Source: a virus
Lineage: Duplodnaviria; Caudoviricetes
IMG/VR virus record: IMGVR_UViG_3300037249_000354
Location: 557 to 64,556 of that record
DNA: 64,000 nucleotides
Reading direction: 5' to 3' (one strand)
Below are positions 2,144 to 34,347 of the stretch, in pieces. Numbering within the stretch: position 1 is the first letter of the stretch; each line of letters begins with the position of its first letter. Below the pieces are notes generated by a model, which saw only the letters and a program-made list of their open reading frames with translations, searched no databases and had not been told where the DNA came from. Both the position numbers and the translations under genes were made by a program.

Positions 2144-2449
2144 TCAAAACAATCCAGCTATATCTTCCGGCGTAATGTCAGCTTCGGTAATATCTGTGCC
2201 ACCACCGCCACCACTTTCGAGCTTGGTGGCCACGCAATTAACATAAGTTTTCTCACGCAATGCACGAATAAAGATGGTATCGGCAGAAATCGGAAAGGCT
2301 GAGTTATCCGACTTGAGAACCACCACGCCTGTTCCTGCAACAGGATTATTGGTGCAAATCTCAATGCCAGAACCTTCCTTGACGTAGATATAACCGCTTG
2401 TTTCCTTAATCTGCACAAATTTATCAGGGTTTACGATATACTGTGCCAT
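2144..2449 (-). CDS. hypothetical virion protein
   Basis: Start MAQY at 2449 after GAGGTGAG RBS; C-terminus (DITPEDIAGLF) resembles the ends of 1374-2075 (DITQSDIQELFS) and 58521-59246 (DITKTDIQALFA). Confidence 0.6.
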   Translation of the reverse strand: MAQYIVNPDKFVQIKETSGYIYVKEGSGIEICTNNPVAGTGVVVLKSDNSAFPISADTIFIRALREKTYVNCVATKLESGGGGGTDITEADITPEDIAGLF

Positions 2450-2461
2450 GTTTCTCACCTC

Positions 2462-3064
2462 CTACTCTAGCTTTATGGATTCAAGGACAATTTCTTCTAA
2501 GTCCCAACCGCCCATGAAAATTTGCTGAAATTCAGCTTCATCATCTTGAAAGTGGCAACGGTAGAACCATCTGCCAGTCCACCTCAACACCGCACCATTG
2601 CTAGGTGCATCGTCAAAAACAATAAGCCCGTTCTTGTCCCATGTAAACGCCGTTATTTCATGGTTATTTACAAATATCCGCGGCCTGTTAGCCACGCCAA
2701 AAACAGGCTCAACATAGTCACCATATTGCCGTGTCAGTCTGAAATATCTTTTCTCACCATCACCTGTGCCAAATCTTTGCTTGGCTACAGCGTTATCCTC
2801 AAATAGAGGGTCAGCATATAAGAAATCCTGCCCTGCACCGCCAAGCTGATTGTAGAACGCCATGAGCGTGTGTATATCATCAGCCATTGAATTTCTATCT
2901 GAAAGGTAGCTGAATGACAGGTTGAAGGTGTAGTAAGGATAGGTGTAGCATTGCAAGAACTTCTTTACACCGCTAATACTCTCTTGGGTTATCGTATTCC
3001 AATGCGGCGTTTTGCCAATCGGATATTGAAGCCCACGGAGAGTGGGAAAGATTAAGTCACTCAT
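2462..3064 (-). CDS. DUF2460-family distal tail (Dit-like) protein
   Basis: Motifs FYNQLGGAGQDFLYADP, FGTGDGEKRYFRL, WTGRWFYRCHF; directly follows the tape measure gene; start MSDL after GGTGATGG. Confidence 0.8.
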   Translation of the reverse strand: MSDLIFPTLRGLQYPIGKTPHWNTITQESISGVKKFLQCYTYPYYTFNLSFSYLSDRNSMADDIHTLMAFYNQLGGAGQDFLYADPLFEDNAVAKQRFGTGDGEKRYFRLTRQYGDYVEPVFGVANRPRIFVNNHEITAFTWDKNGLIVFDDAPSNGAVLRWTGRWFYRCHFQDDEAEFQQIFMGGWDLEEIVLESIKLE

Positions 3065-3129
3065 GCCATCACCTACCTTTACATAAAAATAGCGCACCGC
3101 CTTTGCAGTACGCTTGCCGTGAAACTCTA

Positions 3130-3166
3130 TGCTATTATCTTATCACATTAAAGCCTAACTTTTGTG
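3130..3166 (-). promoter_or_regulatory. putative late promoter, copy 2
   Basis: Minus strand CACAAAAGTTAGGCTTTAATGTGATAAGATAATAGCA aligns without gaps to 19011-19047; TG-extended -10 TAAGAT. Confidence 0.5.
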
Positions 3167-3172
3167 TATCAT

Positions 3173-3208
3173 AAAAAGAAAATCCCTGCATCCGTAGACA
3201 GCAGGGAT
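3173..3208 (-). terminator. Rho-independent terminator after tape measure gene
   Basis: Stem ATCCCTGC/GCAGGGAT followed by a T-run on the minus strand. Confidence 0.8.
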
Positions 3209-3213
3209 AAACC

Positions 3214-6200
3214 TTACACTAAACCTCTGGCGGTTAGATAGCCATTGCGAATGCCTTTCTTCACATTCTTTGACAAGTCACGATTATAATTTCTGAGAAC
3301 CCTCTCGAACCCTCTCGAATCTACTGTGCTTACCTGAATGTTGCTCTTGATGTTCGCATTACTAGAATTGCCACCACCAAGGCTACCGCCATTTCTGGCA
3401 GTATTGCGGATAACATCTGCTTGCTCCGGCGTGAGAACCATTTCGTTCTTATGCACCATTGCAAACATATCACGCTCGATATTGCCACCAATATCGAAGC
3501 TAGGCACATTGAAGGTAGTGGATTGCATAACAGGCGTAGGTGTCATGTAGTAGCTATCAGGGGAACGCCCAAGGTTTACGCTACTGGTTTTCTTTGTTTC
3601 AGAAGAACCTCCGCCACCAAAGCCACCGAAGAGAGAGAACAGGGCTAGTACAGCCATTATCCAACCCATCATAGCCGTAGTGGTTGCCTGTACGGTTGCA
3701 GCAGTTGTCTGGCTTTGAGCTACAATAGCGGTATCACCTGTTTCCTCGGTAGTAACCTGCGCTGTTTTGTATGCTCCCCATTCAGCACCCATTGCCGCTG
3801 TACTTGCACTTGTAGTGGCTTGCATAGTAGCGGTGCCCTGTTGAGTAGCCGCATTGACAGCAGTCCAGCTTGTAGAAATGGTGTTTTGCATCGTAGAGCC
3901 AATCTGGTTCATTCTCTGCTTGACTTCCTGCATGGTGTTCTTCGGTATCAGGTTATCAAGCACTGAGAAGCCACCAAACAGGCCACTACTACCACCTTTA
4001 CCTTTGCCTTTCTTGTCACCCAAGCCAATGCCCTGCGTGCGTCCAAACAGCCCTAAGTCACCATAGGAACCTAGAATTAGTGAACCGAAGTCACCGCCAC
4101 CCATGATGCCAGTATCTTTAATGGCACCCATAGCACCACGATTCTGCCCTAGAGATTTTTTCTTACCCGTAGGGTGAAGCATTTCAGATAGCCAGCCTTT
4201 GACTTTCTCGGCTAAATCTTGAGTAAACAGCTTGATAATGTCATTGACGATGCCTTTGAACATATCACGCAAGGCAGCACCAAAGGATTTTGTGCCATTC
4301 AGTATGGATTCTAAGCCACTTTGGAAACCATTCGTGAAAGAATCAATGAACTGAATAGTGTATCTTGCGTTATACTGATAGGCTTCTGCCGCCAAATCTT
4401 GCTGTTTCTGGCGATATGCTTCTTCCAACTTCATTTCTTCATCAAGGGCTTTCTTGGTGGCATCCACATCCCTTGACAGCCACATCAGCTTTTTAGCGTA
4501 CCATTCTGCTTCTGCCCTATCCTTGGCATAGATAAGTCCCTGATAAGCCGCCATCATATCTTCTGCTGTGCCTCTATCCAAGGCAACAGTAGAAGCTAGT
4601 TTGGCATCAAGAATAGGCTTCTGCATAGCGTAGTTGCGCTCATTTTTGCGGTTGTAGTAATCACGCACATCAGCCTTAGACATAAGCCCTAGCTTCTCAG
4701 CAAAGGCTACCTCAGAATCAGCCATCTTGTCGATTGCCGCTACCTGCGTATCGGTGGCTTTCTGGGCATACTCAGCCCGCTTTGCTTCTTCTTTGGCGTA
4801 CTCAGTCAGCTTCTTAGCATAATCCTTTTGTGCGTTCTCCAACACAGCAAATGGATTCCTGCCGTTACCAATGCCCATCATCTTTTCATAGAGTTGCAGT
4901 TCTTCTCTAGCAGAAACCTTCTGCCCTTCTCTTTGCCTCTCAGTTTTCAGACGTTCAAGTTCAAGGTCAAAGAGCTTCTTTGCCTCTTGATAAGATGCCT
5001 TTATCGCCTTTTCGCCATCGGTGTAGTTGTCCTCGCCATTCTTGCGTTCAAAGCGTGTAGCATACTCTCTGGCATTGCGCTGTCTTTGCCAATCAACAGG
5101 TGAGCCGGGAGCTTCACCACTACGCTCATAGTGCTGATTGATAAGGCTTGCCCATTGTTCCGGCGTGGTAGGCGCGGCAGAAAGAATCCTGCGATACGCT
5201 TCTTGTTCGTTACCCTGTCTCATTTCGTAGATAGCGAAGTCATACTGCAAGGCACGTTTCTGCTGAATGTCCATTGCATTGTACTGTTCTTCGCTAATAC
5301 CACGCAAGTTGGCAAGGTAATCATCCATGAAGTCGTACCAACGCCCTGTACGGTTGGCATCGTTGTAATCCCATTGGATTAACCCACGGTGGCTACCATT
5401 GTCAGCGTCAGGGTTGAAACCAGATTCCTGCATGATGTTGCCCAGAAGTCCAAGCACCATGTTCTTGTCTAAGCCTTTGCCAACAAGATAGCGATAGCCC
5501 ATTGCTTCCGGTGAATTGTCGGCTTCTTTTGCGCCCTTTGCGCCTTTACTGCCTTTGCCTTTGGAGCCTGCGCCACCGCCGCCACCTTCTAAATCATCAT
5601 ATCCTCGAAGCAATTCAGGAGAAAGCGCATATGGGTTATCCTTATCACCCATCATGCCACCATAGGCATCACCCATGACATTTTTCAGCAAATCGCCAGC
5701 TTGTTCTTGCCCAAGTTTAGCCAATCCAGCAAGTCCTTCGTCAAGGAAAGTTTCTATGAAGCCTTTCTTTTTGACTTGCCCTTCCGCTTTCTTGAAGTCG
5801 CCCCAAGAAGCAACGGTGGATTCACCAAAGCTACCGCCTCCACCACCATAACCGGCGGCACCAGTCCCAACGCTACCACCTTCCACATTTATACTGGTAT
5901 CGCCACCAATGGTAAACGCATTTTTGATAGCCTTTTGTATCTGAGAAGCGATATTGGAGATTTTTTGCGCCGCACGAATGAGTTGTCCAATCGTGCCATC
6001 AAGGAAGTCAGCAAAAGTCCTGCTTACGTTATCACGAATCCATTTGACTGCTTCATCAAATCTGTTCGCAATCCAAGCAAGAATACCCTGAACGCCTTTG
6101 CCGTGAATCCCTAGCTTTTCTTTTACCCAATCAAGAATCTGCCCAAACTTTTCAGCCGCCCATTGTACGGCAGGGATAATTAGTTTAACGAATACAGTCC

Positions 6201-19888: not shown

Positions 19889-22800
19889 TCATGCTCTACC
19901 TTCCTGCATACGCTTCATCCACTCAATGTAGCTATTCACAGAACCATCACCTGTAATCATTTTGCCAAACTCCACCAAGGCTTCAACGCCATCATCGTGC
20001 TTGTTCTTGCCATCCTTGGTAAAACCCATCACAGCCTTGTAGAACTCAGGCCACTTCTTATCCCATTTTTCTGGGAAGTACACATGGTTGATAACAAACG
20101 TAGAACCTGTGAGAATCCTCGCCATCTTGTTTTCCGTCTGGTGAAACCATGTGATATTCACCTGTTTGGTGTGATACTTCTCCCAAATCAGCTTCTCTAC
20201 GTTCCGGGCAAAGCCCTTACCGCCGTTGTTGCTCTCAATCTTTGCGTTGGTAACGCCATTTCGATAGAGCAAGTCAGCCGTGGCAGGTTCGGTAATCTGC
20301 ATATTGTCCTGAGTGAAGTAAATATCCGTGATGTAACCTTCACCATCTTTCACCTTGCCCACCACGCAAGCTAGATAATCGTCACCTTCATCAGCCGTAT
20401 CGCAGTAGGCAATGACACTCTCCGTACCTTCTGGAAGTGTATCGTAGGTTTTCAAATCGGTGAACAATCTACCTTCAACATCTAGTGGCTTTTGGTAGTA
20501 GTTCGCTTCGAAAATATTGGTGTCCATGCCCTCTCTGAGCCGTTCAAAGGCATCTTTCGGCAGGATTTCTTCGCAGTACAGTTCGCCATCATGCTCAACA
20601 GGGATAATGAGGTTCGCCCAATCCTTAGACATAGGGCTGTCAAGGATTCTGCCGCACAAATCCTTTGTGCTCCATCGTGTGAAGTTGATGATTTCGATAG
20701 AACCTTCACCTGTATGCTCTGCGCGTGACATAAGAGTGCCTGTGTACCAGTTCCATATATCATCAAGGACACGCTCGTTGTAGGCTTCTTGTGCGTTTTT
20801 TATAAGGTCGTCCAAAATTAAACAATTGTGCGTAAGTAAACTATTTCCAATAAAGTTATGATTATCAGCTATCTGCAAGTCATAGCATTTGTACTTTTCG
20901 CCACTAACTCTTTCAATGCTGATAATCCTATCGGCTTGTATTGGTGATGTATGTTCTGGTGGCAAGTTGTACATACAGTTATCAGATTGTTTGCGGAGTT
21001 GTTGTGAATATTCCCGTCTATATGGTGAACAATCAAATTCGTTCTCTCCAACTCCCTGCCTTTCCACCGATACAGCGTTTTCTTTTCTGTCTTTCCACAA
21101 ATCAGGCAATGATAACTGTCCCTGCCCATTACTTCCTTCCTTACTTTCAAGAAGATTGCTTCGTAATTGTGCCCGTCTATGAAGCGTGGATTCCCCTTCC
21201 CTGTCATTCTCAATGAATGAGCCTTGCTTGAACATTCTCTTGAGCAATAAACAGTCTTGCTGTTGTGTGGTCTGAATATCTTTCCGCACATCAGACACGT
21301 TCTGTCCGTTAATGTTCTCCTGCTTCTCCCTTCCCATTTTGACCTGCAAGTCTGAGAGCAGAACATCTTTCCTGTATGTAGCTTCTCCCCACACACAATG
21401 CAAGTTTCTCTTTTGTTTGCATCTTTCTGTGCCATATTTGCACAATCCTTTGAGCAAAACACCTTCTTGCCTGTGTTCTTTCTCATTGCCTTGTGATAAT
21501 CCTGCATTGGTTTCAGAAAGGGAGAGCCGCAATGCCCGCAAATCACCTTTATTGGCAGTTTCCTCAGTTCCATATAACAATCCCTGCAAATTATCCCTCT
21601 GCCATACTTTTCCTTCCCACAAATCACGCAGGTTTTGTTTTTCCTGCTGTGTAATGGCGTAGAAGCAATCGCCTTTTCCAAAAGTGCCAGCTTCTCTAAA
21701 CCCTCTGCCGTCAAAGAATCTGTGCTCTTTAGTACACGCAATTTCTCTACCAAACTCAGTCTTGAAGATGATGATTTCATCGCTAATAACCTCCCTTGTG
21801 GCGAGTATTCCTTTATACTCTATTATACCACTTTTGAGGTTTAATGACGGGACTAGGTAACTATCTTTATTTGAACAAATTTGTTCAATAGGCACTTCGC
21901 CTTTGTTAGTTAAAACAAGCGTTCCTTCCAACAAACAGTTTGCGCCGGAGCCGGTCAATGACCCCTCCATACCTGTGCCCATGTAGTTGAAGAACGAACC
22001 TTCCAACGCCCACTTCATAAATCCTGCATTGCCCTTGCTTATCCGACAACCTGGGAACACATCTGAGAAAACAATATCCGTAGGGATAACCTTCTGCTGC
22101 ATGATGCCATCACGCACATACCTTGATATGTTAGATGCCAAATCGGTGTTGTAGGAAACCGTGATTATGCGATTATCCTTGCTTTTGCCCAACAACCATT
22201 GCTCAAACATGGTAAGGCTTCTGGTTTTGCCTGAACGTGGTGACATATTTATCATCAGCTTCGTGTAGGGCTTGCCATCATGCAGTCTGTCCCAATCAAT
22301 GCCCTCTGCCACCCATTTCGGTATATGTGGCATGGTGCATAGTTTCCAGAAGTAATTCTTCGTCAGATGTCTCTCGTAGAGTGCTTGCAGGGTGTTACAG
22401 AGTAACCATAGATGCCATCGTTTTGCCTTGAAGAAATCCGGTGCAAGTATCTGGCAGAAGTTGAAGAAGTTCTTCCTACATTGGCGAAGCTGAATCTCCC
22501 TCTCGATGAGATACAGCCGTTCCTGCTCCTGCCTTGCCAGTTTCTTCGCTTTGGTTGCCCTTGCCGCTTCGGTTCTGCAATGACCACAAACATCATTCAG
22601 CCCATCTTTCTTGCGAAGGTTCTTTGTAAATTCTTCAACAGGTCTTTCCTGCCCGCACTTCTTGCAGACTTTTGTTGCGCCTTCTTCAATCAACTTCTCT
22701 CGCCGCCTTTCTGCTTGGTGCTTGTGATTGTTTCGGTTGGTGCGCTTGTCCATGCACGCCTTACAAGAGTGAAAATAGCCGTCCCAATTCTCCTTGCGCT

Positions 22801-22918
22801 TGTAGAACTCGCTTACAGGCTTTACGGTTGAACATTCACGGCACACCTTGTACTTTGGTTCATATCCTTCACGGCGGTAGCGGTATTTTCGCTTCTCCTT
22901 TGGTTCGGTGTCAGCCAT
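19889..22918 (-). CDS. terL: terminase large subunit with intein and N-terminal Zn-finger extension
   Basis: Walker A-like INMSPRSGKT; spliced GSGAN-CLILDDLIK Walker B; C-terminal nuclease (YCDTADEGDD, KHDDGVEAL); start MADT after GAGGTG. Confidence 0.92.
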   Translation of the reverse strand: MADTEPKEKRKYRYRREGYEPKYKVCRECSTVKPVSEFYKRKENWDGYFHSCKACMDKRTNRNNHKHQAERRREKLIEEGATKVCKKCGQERPVEEFTKNLRKKDGLNDVCGHCRTEAARATKAKKLARQEQERLYLIEREIQLRQCRKNFFNFCQILAPDFFKAKRWHLWLLCNTLQALYERHLTKNYFWKLCTMPHIPKWVAEGIDWDRLHDGKPYTKLMINMSPRSGKTRSLTMFEQWLLGKSKDNRIITVSYNTDLASNISRYVRDGIMQQKVIPTDIVFSDVFPGCRISKGNAGFMKWALEGSFFNYMGTGMEGSLTGSGANCLLEGTLVLTNKGEVPIEQICSNKDSYLVPSLNLKSGIIEYKGILATREVISDEIIIFKTEFGREIACTKEHRFFDGRGFREAGTFGKGDCFYAITQQEKQNLRDLWEGKVWQRDNLQGLLYGTEETANKGDLRALRLSLSETNAGLSQGNEKEHRQEGVLLKGLCKYGTERCKQKRNLHCVWGEATYRKDVLLSDLQVKMGREKQENINGQNVSDVRKDIQTTQQQDCLLLKRMFKQGSFIENDREGESTLHRRAQLRSNLLESKEGSNGQGQLSLPDLWKDRKENAVSVERQGVGENEFDCSPYRREYSQQLRKQSDNCMYNLPPEHTSPIQADRIISIERVSGEKYKCYDLQIADNHNFIGNSLLTHNCLILDDLIKNAQEAYNERVLDDIWNWYTGTLMSRAEHTGEGSIEIINFTRWSTKDLCGRILDSPMSKDWANLIIPVEHDGELYCEEILPKDAFERLREGMDTNIFEANYYQKPLDVEGRLFTDLKTYDTLPEGTESVIAYCDTADEGDDYLACVVGKVKDGEGYITDIYFTQDNMQITEPATADLLYRNGVTNAKIESNNGGKGFARNVEKLIWEKYHTKQVNITWFHQTENKMARILTGSTFVINHVYFPEKWDKKWPEFYKAVMGFTKDGKNKHDDGVEALVEFGKMITGDGSVNSYIEWMKRMQEGRA
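20825..21937 (-). mobile_element. intein in TerL (371 aa)
   Basis: Block A CLLEGTLVLT, block B GREIACTKEHRFF, block F YKCYDLQIADNHNF, block G LLTHN followed by +1 Cys; removal restores GSGAN|CLILDD. Confidence 0.93.
20869..21780 (-). CDS. Zn-finger-repeat HNH endonuclease nested in the +1 frame inside the intein
   Basis: 303 aa; several CxxC and CSxxC units; CLICGK...VHHIDGNIHNNSANNLITVCTTCHQNIH HNH motif; GGGAGGT Shine-Dalgarno (21795-21789) 8 nt before the ATG. Confidence 0.85.
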   Translation of the reverse strand: MKSSSSRLSLVEKLRVLKSTDSLTAEGLEKLALLEKAIASTPLHSRKNKTCVICGKEKYGRGIICRDCYMELRKLPIKVICGHCGSPFLKPMQDYHKAMRKNTGKKVFCSKDCANMAQKDANKRETCIVCGEKLHTGKMFCSQTCRSKWEGRSRRTLTDRTCLMCGKIFRPHNSKTVYCSRECSSKAHSLRMTGKGNPRFIDGHNYEAIFLKVRKEVMGRDSYHCLICGKTEKKTLYRWKGRELERTNLIVHHIDGNIHNNSANNLITVCTTCHQNIHHQYKPIGLSALKELVAKSTNAMTCR

Positions 22919-23228
22919 CACTAGCCACCTCTGCAATCCTCCGCATAACAAACGAGGCGCATGGTTTCGCCATGCCGTTACCCAGTGCCTTGTACCGCTT
23001 GCTATCCGGAGCGGGTTTACCCTTGTATTCTATGTCGGTATATCCGTCTGGAAGTCCTTGAAGTCTCTCGCACTCCAACGGGGTCAATCTCCGCACCGTC
23101 TTAACCGTATCATTGGCAATCGGCGGCTGTTTGTAGTCATTCGCCATTAAGCTATCAGCCTTTTCACACGGATATGTGCTTGCCCTCTGGTCATACCCCA
23201 TCGAGTAGCAATGTCCTTTTTCAATCAT
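22911..23228 (-). CDS. C5-cytosine DNA methyltransferase, C-terminal part (motifs IX-X)
   Basis: RRLTPLECERLQGLPDGYT and RYKALGNGMA. Confidence 0.85.
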   Translation of the reverse strand: MIEKGHCYSMGYDQRASTYPCEKADSLMANDYKQPPIANDTVKTVRRLTPLECERLQGLPDGYTDIEYKGKPAPDSKRYKALGNGMAKPCASFVMRRIAEVASDG

Positions 23229-23311
23229 CAATTACCAACTTCCCTTCATCCACATACTGAGAACCTACTCCCTTGTAATCTCTTGCGTTCAAGCATCCGA
23301 CTTTTCGCTGA

Positions 23312-24754
23312 TTACAAAGGTTTCGCTGCCCCCCCCCCGGCTGTACCACCTTCCGCTCTGAGTGTACCTGCAACTTTATCTTCAGAATAACTCTGGAATC
23401 CGCTTGCTCGATACCCTACGATTGCCACACCGCCTTGATTCTTGCTAGGGTCTGGTGTGGTTGTATCAAGGCATTTAGACACCTCAACTTCTCTGCACCC
23501 ACTATGAGGGTTGCTAGACTGCATAGCATTGCTTGCCAGAGAATCAAAGGCATACGCTTTGACTATTGGCACATGACCGTGGCTCTCTGCTCTGAGAGTG
23601 CCAGCCTTATCCGATACATCCATCACGCTACCGCCTTGGTCATTGAGGCATATTGCAGGTGCATTATCCCCAGGATTCGCCCTAAGAGTAGGTGCTGTGC
23701 CTTTGTAGACATGACCACCATCACGGCTTGCTATTCCTGGTTCAAACACTATCGGCGTATTGTTACCGCCAGTCCCTGCCCTTGCCTTGAGTGTTTGTGT
23801 TTTGTTGCCATGTATCTCACGCACCACTTCATCGTGGTGAGTAAGGTCATAGATTGCCACATTCTGAGAGGTTTCAAGTGTTGGTGCTTGCTCATCCGCA
23901 TAGCCTATGCTCCTTGCTTTGGCTCCGTTGCGATACTTGAAGCCCCCTGTGAACACCGTCTGTGTGTTCTGCGTAGAGAGTGCCAGCGACAGTTCGTCTT
24001 TGACTAGAGGGCCTTTACCTCCACCGGGCTTTCCTGCTCGCATTGTGAGGGTTGCAACCCTGCCTGTGCTTTCAACGCCTGCTCTAGCATCGGTGGCAGT
24101 ACCTTCCCTCTCTCCTTCGCTCTCCGCAAAATGCCCATGCAAGCCCTCTGGCTCAAATAGTATTTCTCCGGCGGTGAATCCTCCAAAATCTGCGACAAGA
24201 AAGATTCGTTTTCTTCGTTGGGGGACTCCCCAATATTGAGCATCGAGTGTCCTCCACGCAAGCGAACTTGTACCCCCCCATTCCACATATCCTGCTGATG
24301 CCCACTTGTTATCTTTAGGCATTGGAATTTCGGTCTGGCTGATTTCTTCGAGGACTGCTCTAAAATCATGTCCTTTATTACTACTAAAGGCTCCTGGTAC
24401 ATTCTCCCACACAAAGAATCGTGGTTTTCCTGTTCTCCGTCTAAGTTCGTGAACAAGTCTAATTGCTGTCCTAAATAGCCCACTTCTCTCACCCTCCAAA
24501 CCTGCTCTTTTACCTGCCACAGACAAATCTTGGCATGGACTGCCCGCACAAATTATGTCAACAGGCTCTAAATCCTCAACCCTTATCTTCGTAATATCGC
24601 CCAACTGCTTCACTTCTGGGAAGTGATGGGCAGTTACCGCAGCAGGGAAATCATCAATCTCAGAAGCCCAAACAGGCTTTATGCCATATTCTTTTGCAGA
24701 TAGCAACCAACCGCCAATTCCATCGAAAAGAGAACCTAACGTAAGTTCAGCCAT
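23312..24754 (-). CDS. C5-cytosine DNA methyltransferase, N-terminal part (motifs I-VIII plus TRD repeats)
   Basis: LGSLFDGIGG, CAGSPCQDLS, WENVPG, PQRRKRIF; repeated xTLxA...GG target-recognition segments; ends just after a G10 tract. Confidence 0.9.
   Translation of the reverse strand: MAELTLGSLFDGIGGWLLSAKEYGIKPVWASEIDDFPAAVTAHHFPEVKQLGDITKIRVEDLEPVDIICAGSPCQDLSVAGKRAGLEGERSGLFRTAIRLVHELRRRTGKPRFFVWENVPGAFSSNKGHDFRAVLEEISQTEIPMPKDNKWASAGYVEWGGTSSLAWRTLDAQYWGVPQRRKRIFLVADFGGFTAGEILFEPEGLHGHFAESEGEREGTATDARAGVESTGRVATLTMRAGKPGGGKGPLVKDELSLALSTQNTQTVFTGGFKYRNGAKARSIGYADEQAPTLETSQNVAIYDLTHHDEVVREIHGNKTQTLKARAGTGGNNTPIVFEPGIASRDGGHVYKGTAPTLRANPGDNAPAICLNDQGGSVMDVSDKAGTLRAESHGHVPIVKAYAFDSLASNAMQSSNPHSGCREVEVSKCLDTTTPDPSKNQGGVAIVGYRASGFQSYSEDKVAGTLRAEGGTAGGGAAKPL
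23329..23338 (-). repeat. G10 homopolymer at the methyltransferase split
   Basis: Ten consecutive C on the plus strand, 14 nt before the stop of 23312-24754. Confidence 0.95.
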
Positions 24755-33633: not shown

Positions 33634-34347
33634 TCAAAGTTTCTTTATAGCTTCAACCCACTCTAATGTATCTTGAATATCTCTCCGTGTCTTGTCTATG
33701 TCATGCAAATATATATCAACCCTCCCGTACTTTAGCCTGGTGATAGAGCATATCTTATTTTTACTAACACCTTTATCACGCAACTCTAGCACCTTCTTTT
33801 TGTGATAAGCCGAAAAGAAATCCACAACCCTTGACTTCATCATCCCGTCATACAACGGATAATATTCTTTCATATAGGCAAATATGTTTGCATACATACA
33901 CATATTCTTATTGCCACCGAAAACAAAATCCTCTTTGTAAAACCTCTTAATGAACTCATACGCTAACTTTTCTTTTTCGATAAACCTATCAGTCTCAATT
34001 TCTTTTCCTATCAATGCTCTTTTGCTTTCGTTATCACCCTTTGCTTTTTCTATTTCTTCGTGGCACGGCCTACATAGTGTAATCAAATCCTTATAAACAT
34101 CCTCGTGCCCTAATGTGTCATAATTGAGATGATGAACCTGTAAGCAATAAGAATATCCGCACCGCTGGCATTTATAATTATCTATTTTAAGTCTTTCACT
34201 GCGTTTCTTTTGCCACTCAGGGCTTTTAAGATACTTCTCGTATCTCTCCCTATACCCATCTTCCTCTACAATCTCTTTAGCGTTTTCACTGAACACACTA
34301 AGAGCCTGGCATAAAGCCTCTGCCTGCTTCTCTGTAAATTCTCCCAT
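33634..34347 (-). CDS. HNH endonuclease
   Basis: YLKSPEWQKKR...CQRCG...QVHHLNY...LITLCRPCH. Confidence 0.88.
   Translation of the reverse strand: MGEFTEKQAEALCQALSVFSENAKEIVEEDGYRERYEKYLKSPEWQKKRSERLKIDNYKCQRCGYSYCLQVHHLNYDTLGHEDVYKDLITLCRPCHEEIEKAKGDNESKRALIGKEIETDRFIEKEKLAYEFIKRFYKEDFVFGGNKNMCMYANIFAYMKEYYPLYDGMMKSRVVDFFSAYHKKKVLELRDKGVSKNKICSITRLKYGRVDIYLHDIDKTRRDIQDTLEWVEAIKKL

Follow-up and report, generated by a model that had tools for sequence, protein, structure and literature searches.

An HNH nuclease gene written in the +1 frame over the terminase intein of a rumen phage, a probable homing element

Nuclease genes placed within an intein and out of its reading frame have been reported in several systems. 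In brucellaphage Tb (GenBank NC_019446), the large terminase gene (terL) was annotated by 2012 as 'intein present' together with a nested HNH coding sequence, an arrangement discussed in 2015 (PMC4422536). Gosselin, Arsenault and Gogarten (10.1101/2025.01.02.630785) described actinobacteriophage inteins with out-of-frame or antisense nucleases, for which they proposed an origin from a free-standing homing gene invading an intein. Phillips et al. (bioRxiv 10.64898/2026.09.14.751524) reported a cyanobacterial dnaX intein with an out-of-frame LAGLIDADG nuclease, in which purifying selection falls on the nuclease frame, with relaxed constraint on the frame of the intein. Nuclease open reading frames (ORFs) outside the intein frame are also credited to Gorbalenya 1998, although the two preprints citing that work disagree on what it described, giving antisense ORFs (10.1101/2025.01.02.630785) or 'alternate open readings' (10.64898/2026.09.14.751524). 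Related layouts are the fractured genes of Dassa et al. 2009 (PMC2677866), which are split inteins with a free-standing nuclease gene between their halves, and the ShiLan insertion (PMC11855218), a hidden out-of-frame HNH in a phage methylase gene whose insertion is stop-free in the host frame. Here we describe a terL intein from a Caudoviricetes phage recovered in a bovine-gut (rumen) metagenome assembly (IMG/VR record IMGVR_UViG_3300037249_000354; 'the window' denotes the whole 64,000-nucleotide (nt) stretch analysed, positions 557 to 64,556 of that record). An HNH nuclease gene overlaps this intein, and we consider it very probable that the locus is a mobile intein in the essential terL gene and that its homing nuclease is encoded separately, by a gene superimposed on the intein in the +1 frame.

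The nested layout itself is not new. The initial annotation of this DNA, made from the sequence alone, named no characterised dual-coded example; the layout had already been published, and none of the examples above has been characterised experimentally. The element of brucellaphages Tb and Pr (Perisivirus) is homologous to that of the window, occupies the same position ahead of the Walker B motif and uses the same +1 register, with the HNH proteins sharing 31% identity over 78% of the query. However, the brucellaphage HNH has 228 amino acids (aa), starts at intein residue 101 (53 in the window) and stops ~3 codons before the intein end (15 in the window); its phage infects an alphaproteobacterium and the exteins are only 33% identical to ours. 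The inteins of Gosselin et al. likewise reside in terL and combine an off-frame nuclease with an in-frame middle lacking a predicted fold, but the out-of-frame nuclease that they describe on the same strand is endonuclease VII-like and lies in 'frame 3', whereas the window encodes a zinc-ribbon HNH at +1. The supplementary table of that preprint (10.1101/2025.01.02.630785) lists the terL intein of Gordonia phage Clown as 'HNH', and its text calls HNH nucleases in-frame. In our analysis, the Clown HNH (L002/L009; terL, 2348-3502) lies in the +1 frame of terL and is a member of the window family.

The dnaX intein of Phillips et al. is also contiguous, carries an overlapping nuclease ORF and displays the same selection pattern as the window, but differs in its cellular host gene, its LAGLIDADG enzyme and its ORF at +2. 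As in the fractured genes of Dassa et al., a putative homing gene lies inside intein DNA, and three relatives (L016, L048 and L049, described below) have exactly that layout. Unlike fractured genes, the window has an unbroken host frame and a contiguous intein that is predicted to splice in cis: its terL is a single uninterrupted 1020-codon ORF, not two ORFs with the N- and C-terminal intein parts (IntN and IntC) encoded separately. In the ShiLan insertion intein blocks were not found and a ribosome site was not detected, whereas the HNH of the window is flanked by a full HINT domain and preceded by a strong Shine-Dalgarno (SD) sequence. The window displays what is expected of an out-of-frame-nuclease intein, namely an off-frame nuclease with an open host frame, purifying selection on one frame and relaxation of the other, and close relatives free of the intein. 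The strongest additions it makes to these precedents are the pattern of population single-nucleotide polymorphisms (SNPs), a positionally conserved internal start, and the presence of contiguous and split forms in one lineage.

All three features, terL, the intein and the nested HNH ORF, are on the minus strand of the window. The terL ORF (19889..22951; 1020 aa including the intein, from the ORF list and its translation) starts at TTG 22951 or, alternatively, ATG 22918, and was identified by a match to the PHROG terminase large subunit (E 1e-111) and by Pfam Terminase_6C covering residues 849-993. An alignment that included 15 terL homologues and three alleles lacking the intein delimited an N-extein (21938..22951) ending ...G-S-G-A-N, a class-1 intein (20825..21937; 371 aa, terL residues 339-709) and a C-extein (19889..20824) that begins C-L-I-L-D-D (the Walker B motif, 20807-20824) and includes the nuclease domain matched by Terminase_6C. 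The intein is therefore positioned directly before Walker B. On its N side it has Cys1 and a block B T-K-E-H (T69, H72), and on its C side a block F ...N-H-N-F and the end L-T-H-N, followed by Cys+1 of C-L-I-L-D-D. Across the 15 homologues C1, G13, G63, H72, A83, L231, Q313, N361, F362 and N371 were invariant, with T69 and H370 kept in at least 90% of members.

The Pfam Intein_splicing match spans the entire 371-aa segment (E 8e-12, over the family cut-off). An AlphaFold2 model built from the family alignment recovered the HINT fold, with pLDDT scores (predicted local distance difference test) of ~95 at residues 1-110 and 330-371. The N-lobe (intein residues 1-110, blocks A and B; 21608..21937) scored 92-97 and the C-lobe (residues 327-371, blocks F and G and the terminal H-N; 20825..20959) 89-96. 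Foldseek placed this confident part with the mini-intein splicing domains of Ssp DnaB and Mtu RecA (E 6e-7, root-mean-square deviation 1.4-1.7 A). The in-frame linker between the lobes (residues 111-326; 20960..21607) scored 31-46, is hydrophilic (mean hydropathy -1.08) and matched no Pfam or PHROG family. The blocks, the Pfam match and the HINT model bear out the initial annotation, which had reported a TerL intein with intact blocks A, B, F and G and an in-frame middle without a recognisable domain; this middle is smaller than it stated, at ~216 aa instead of ~280. Given the intact blocks and the essential function of terL, the intein is predicted to undergo protein splicing.

Could the insert instead be an HNH-bearing group I or II intron, removed as RNA? 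A GenBank note calls the brucellaphage gene 'intron-encoded', and phage group I introns often contain HNH genes. Nevertheless, no Rfam match was obtained for the insert even at E up to 1, canonical intein blocks flank it and their HINT fold is modelled with confidence, and the host frame is held open by selection over the full length of the insert, which would be needless for an intron; the probability of this explanation is negligible.

The HNH gene (20869..21780; 303 aa plus TAG) runs from intein residue 53 to 15 codons short of the intein end, where its TAG falls across the codons for I and A in block F (Y-D-L-Q-I-A-D-N-H-N-F). Its product matched the PHROG HNH family phrog_1271 (E 7e-34) as well as Pfam DZR_2 and HNH, and contains seven CxxC-type motifs, six consecutive CxxC and the CxxC-H of the HNH core. 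This core (HNH residues 225-280; 20941..21108) covers the full 47-position Pfam HNH profile and follows the pattern CxxC ... HH-I-D ... N ... CxxC-H ... H. Twenty residues, including the Cys pairs, were invariant across 16 homologues, among them the catalytic and zinc residues C225, C228, H252, H253, N265, C270, H274 and H278, and C273 was kept in at least 90%. The AlphaFold2 model of the HNH frame had a mean pLDDT of 80.6, rising to 86-93 over residues 211-280, and its top Foldseek matches were the HNH nucleases CBASS Cap5 and McrA (prob 1.0). When the HNH alignment was searched as a profile against solved structures, the only matches were to generic zinc fingers. The SD sequence GGGAGGT (21789..21795) lies 8 nt before the HNH ATG (21780-21778), within the intein codons T-R-E-V. 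The earlier description of a 303-aa zinc-finger HNH in the +1 frame, with this SD within T-R-E-V and a stop inside block F, was accurate in each respect. Nuclease activity, and specificity for the intein-less allele, are predicted from these features.

Both frames are open across the overlap. Within the intein, the +1 frame of terL contains 316 consecutive stop-free codons, agreeing with the ~900 nt first described as stop-free in two frames. The same frame has stops at 14/338 and 13/311 codons of the two exteins (~1 per 24), and the third (+2) frame has 40 stops across the intein (32 in the synonymous-shuffle analysis). When the HNH codons were shuffled synonymously, the terL frame acquired 18.4 stops on average and was open in 0/1000 shuffles; synonymous shuffling of the terL codons gave the HNH frame an average of 9.0 stops and again left it open in 0/1000. 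Chance as the cause of the double open frame was rejected by these shuffles in both directions. The same test applied to relatives gave P(open) <=0.03 in 14/15 and ~0.1 in L015, which has the shortest ORF. Both frames are held open by selection. Each terL codon consists of position 3 of one HNH codon and positions 1 and 2 of the next, and a terL-frame stop is possible only where an HNH NNT codon is followed by AA, AG or GA. Synonymous codon choice in the HNH gene therefore suffices to keep terL open, and the overlap is cheap to maintain.

Natural variation was compared in contigs from four other, independent bovine-gut studies covering 20700-22100. No indels were found in this interval. Among the 20 SNPs in the HNH overlap, 14 were synonymous in the HNH frame and 18 were non-synonymous in the terL frame, and none created a stop (0/20). 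All SNPs in the linker (17/17) altered the terL-frame residue, and those in the exteins and the non-overlapped intein ends were nearly all synonymous in terL. Divergence at the family level followed the same pattern. The initial annotation had suggested examining codon conservation in both frames across homologues, and in 12 family pairs differences peaked at the third HNH codon position, which is the first terL position. Amino-acid identity was higher in the HNH frame in all 12 pairs (window versus L005, 0.59 against 0.42 in terL), and towards the overlap ends, at the HINT blocks, terL-frame identity approached or exceeded HNH-frame identity. Pfam assigned only HINT families to all 15 in-frame translations and HNH families to the +1 translations, of which 13/16 matched HNH_3. 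In the overlap, the HNH frame is under purifying selection and the overlapped intein frame is relaxed. Structural models, family substitutions, natural SNPs and Pfam matches across the family agree that the real protein in the overlap is that of the HNH frame, and the terL-frame linker is constrained only to be stop-free.

These data bear on whether the HNH ORF is a relic, that is, a nuclease gene that once invaded the intein and is now untranslated, kept open by chance or by constraint on terL. Mini-inteins with decayed nucleases are common. Against this stand the SNPs (14/20 synonymous in the HNH frame, 18/20 non-synonymous in terL), the intact and invariant catalytic residues and zinc ligands, the closure of the HNH frame in 1000/1000 terL-codon shuffles and the strong SD conserved in position, which together make a relic very improbable.

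Homologous loci were sought by several routes. A DNA-level search of a phage collection with terL returned only a short match, to Geobacillus phage GBK2, and no close isolate. With tblastn, the HNH protein matched phage genomes inside terL of Brucella phages, Gordonia phage Clown and Synechococcus phage S-EIVl. A scan of viral contigs with the single HNH protein found one weak locus (L004), so that an alignment had to serve as the query; scans guided by a profile, over viral, genome and metagenome contigs, raised the count to ~20 loci (16, plus four from metagenomes), which include a Chloracidobacterium and a Bathyarchaeia metagenome-assembled genome. In every one of these loci a host ORF of 800-1380 aa is open across the HNH gene, which is always at +1. 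The intein site is identical in all aligned members, directly before the Walker B strand (x-H-N | C-h-I-h-D-D). In L012 (2653-3615), the intein lies three codons deeper into Walker B (...A-H-I-A-I | intein | C-D-D-P). An unrelated terL, L034 (1962-4445), carries a different and ordinary in-frame intein near the P-loop in the ATPase region (...P-R-H-G-K-L | C-A-H-D-T...).

The same comparisons address whether a canonical in-frame HNH intein was put out of frame by sequencing or assembly errors, which the initial annotation had named as one of the findings that would overturn its reading. The source is a metagenome assembly, and one close relative in a prophage-like record (L014, 2765-5189) does carry a single mid-overlap frameshift that breaks terL and HNH at the same point, being either a pseudogene or decayed copy, or a sequencing error. 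An artefact in the window would require two compensating indels, whereas the contigs of four independent studies have none, the +1 register is common to ~20 homologues from isolate phages and metagenomes, and the HNH gene has its own SD and ATG. Nor was a full-length in-frame counterpart found among the best protein-database matches. A word-indexed search gave 9 near-length matches and one longer one, and was insensitive compared with a later exhaustive profile search, which returned thousands of predicted family proteins, with 55,121 profile hits in all and, among 1.84 billion representatives, 245 clusters at E up to 1e-30. Nearly all of the best 150 of these 55,121 hits were 107-523 aa long; none resembled a full-length in-frame fusion of terL, intein and HNH, and none >721 aa had a full HNH match. 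A search of longer proteins for an in-frame version yielded the frameshifted form only. There is practically no prospect that the layout is an artefact.

An HNH start at intein residue 53-55, with a GGAG-type site in intein codons, was found in 9/16 members, and the HNH gene of most members ends at a TGA located two codons beyond the intein end. An internal start is not the only way in which a +1 ORF could be translated: programmed +1 ribosomal frameshifting from terL would give an N-extein-IntN-HNH fusion in place of a free protein. The two genes share a strand and keep the +1 register throughout, and a few database proteins (P0162, P0094) carry the HINT N-part and HNH in one frame. These two consist of an N-extein and HINT N-part in frame with HNH, ending at the HNH stop, and are explained either as N-side fusions from fractured genes or as copies with a frameshift. 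In the window, +1 stops just upstream (codons 366-377) leave a very short interval for a shift, a strong SD and ATG stand at the start of the ORF in a conserved position, no slippery motif was seen, although no search was aimed at one, and the product would be a dead-end terL fragment, such that a frameshift fusion is very improbable indeed. A promoter and terminator scan of 20700-23300 gave counts not above those of shuffles, and in this interval no minus-strand promoter-like site was found close upstream of the HNH start.

Three relatives (L028, L029 and L031) have no intein in terL despite 85-87% C-extein identity, their junctions reading ...G-G-N|V-L-I-C-D-D or ...G-G-N|C-L-I-C-D-D. No homologue of the window HNH was found anywhere in G002, the 98%-complete record that holds L031. 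Absence of intein and HNH from close terL relatives is as expected of a mobile element, and this sporadic distribution fits a selfish unit of intein plus nuclease, for which homing is the predicted means of spread. No co-conversion tract was found near the junction, where nucleotide identity to the intein-less alleles is 70-80% throughout, a divergence too high to show one.

Distribution also bears on the suggestion, floated for the brucellaphages (PMC4422536), that the nested HNH assists the terminase as a DNA-packaging cofactor, similar to HK97 gp74, and that its location in terL reflects functional coupling. HNH proteins adjoining terminase genes are widespread packaging factors (cited in PMC4422536). 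The gene of the window family is moreover always within terL. On this account it should be present in all related phages with the same terminase, yet it is missing from the near-complete G002 with its intein-less terL, and the close intein-less terL alleles have no such ORF. The HNH instead tracks intein DNA, being nested at ~20 loci and flanked by split intein halves in three, although a few relatives lack an intein nearby. The split-intein relatives place it between the halves, as for free-standing homing genes. Proteins of the gp74 type are small, and a 303-aa HNH with multiple zinc ribbons is unlike them. We regard a role as packaging cofactor as improbable.

Several observations weigh against a homing nuclease translated from the internal start. 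The Foldseek match of the HNH model is weak (E 2.5e-3), and for the single protein Pfam HNH scored 20.7 bits, marginally below the gathering cut-off of 21.4. Over its first ~50 residues the HNH overlaps the structured HINT N-lobe and aligns with the nearest relative only, so the true start could be farther downstream, where no candidate start has a ribosome site. Finally, among the nearest pairs intein identity correlates roughly with that of the exteins, indicating that the distribution is partly vertical.

Family members with a broken host gene provided an internal control. In the fractured relatives L016 (3-2241), L048 (450-2891) and L049 (1140-4721), an HNH of the same family lies between separate ORFs, the upstream one comprising the N-extein and ~100 aa of IntN (~175 aa past Cys1 in L016) and the downstream one a Met start, ~40-60 aa of IntC and the C-extein. 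With no need for cis-splicing here, the host frame has not been kept open and contains 25-33 stops across the HNH gene. These three are candidate natural split inteins. Tentatively, the contiguous and split inteins of this lineage may form a natural series of split-intein origin: at the contiguous stage HNH codon choice would have to keep the host frame open, and after a change to trans-splicing this constraint would lapse and the 25-33 stops could accumulate. The same tentative proposal includes regulation of the nuclease by RNA structure. A predicted structure at 21778..21849 pairs part of the SD and the AUG (minimum free energy -27.1 kcal/mol versus -17.2 for shuffles, z -3.3); L005, the nearest relative, has a similar hairpin (z about -3), which is not family-wide. 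Judging from the folding model, it could limit HNH translation. Regulation by SD occlusion, or by unwinding as terL-frame ribosomes pass and so tie HNH translation to their own, is speculation.

From the sequence features and comparisons above, we infer the following cycle for the mobile intein and its overlapping nuclease gene. Ribosomes translating terL would make a precursor in which two mini-intein (HINT) halves are joined by the ~216-aa hydrophilic linker, which need only be stop-free and harmless. The intein would excise in cis and join ...G-S-G-A-N to C-L-I-L-D-D, restoring the Walker B ATPase motif. Other ribosomes would initiate internally at the SD and ATG (21795-21778) and produce the 303-aa protein with its several zinc ribbons and HNH site. 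The most likely role of this nuclease is to cut or nick terL alleles that lack the intein in co-infecting relatives, and repair of the cut site would copy in the intein together with the nuclease gene.

Other features of the window lie around this element. Residues 1-~145 of TerL (22517-22951, minus strand) form an N-terminal extension with two CxxC...F...DG...CxxC zinc-ribbon repeats, which matched the PHROG 'Lar-like restriction alleviation' family (E 6e-17) and N-terminal parts of endonuclease VII families and is kept in the intein-less relatives L028, L029 and L031. No small-terminase gene lies directly upstream of terL, so this extension might serve in DNA recognition. The gene directly upstream is a C5 DNA methyltransferase (22911-24754, minus strand) broken into two ORFs, at 23312-24754 and at 22911-23231. 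The genome has another HNH gene at ~34054-34170 (minus strand; G000:C1:34610-34726), within a 238-aa open frame, which is unrelated to the intein and scored 29.6 bits with Pfam HNH, over the cut-off.

The arrangement suggests how a selfish nuclease gene can occupy an essential gene at almost no cost, since splicing would remove the junk translation and synonymous choice keeps the host frame open. Gene callers normally report terL only, such that nucleases of this kind stay hidden, and a published survey appears to file the phage Clown member under nucleases called in-frame in its text. Being well sampled, the family could serve to test the model of mini-intein invasion by a free-standing nuclease, internal initiation within an mRNA already under translation, and how contiguous inteins become split.

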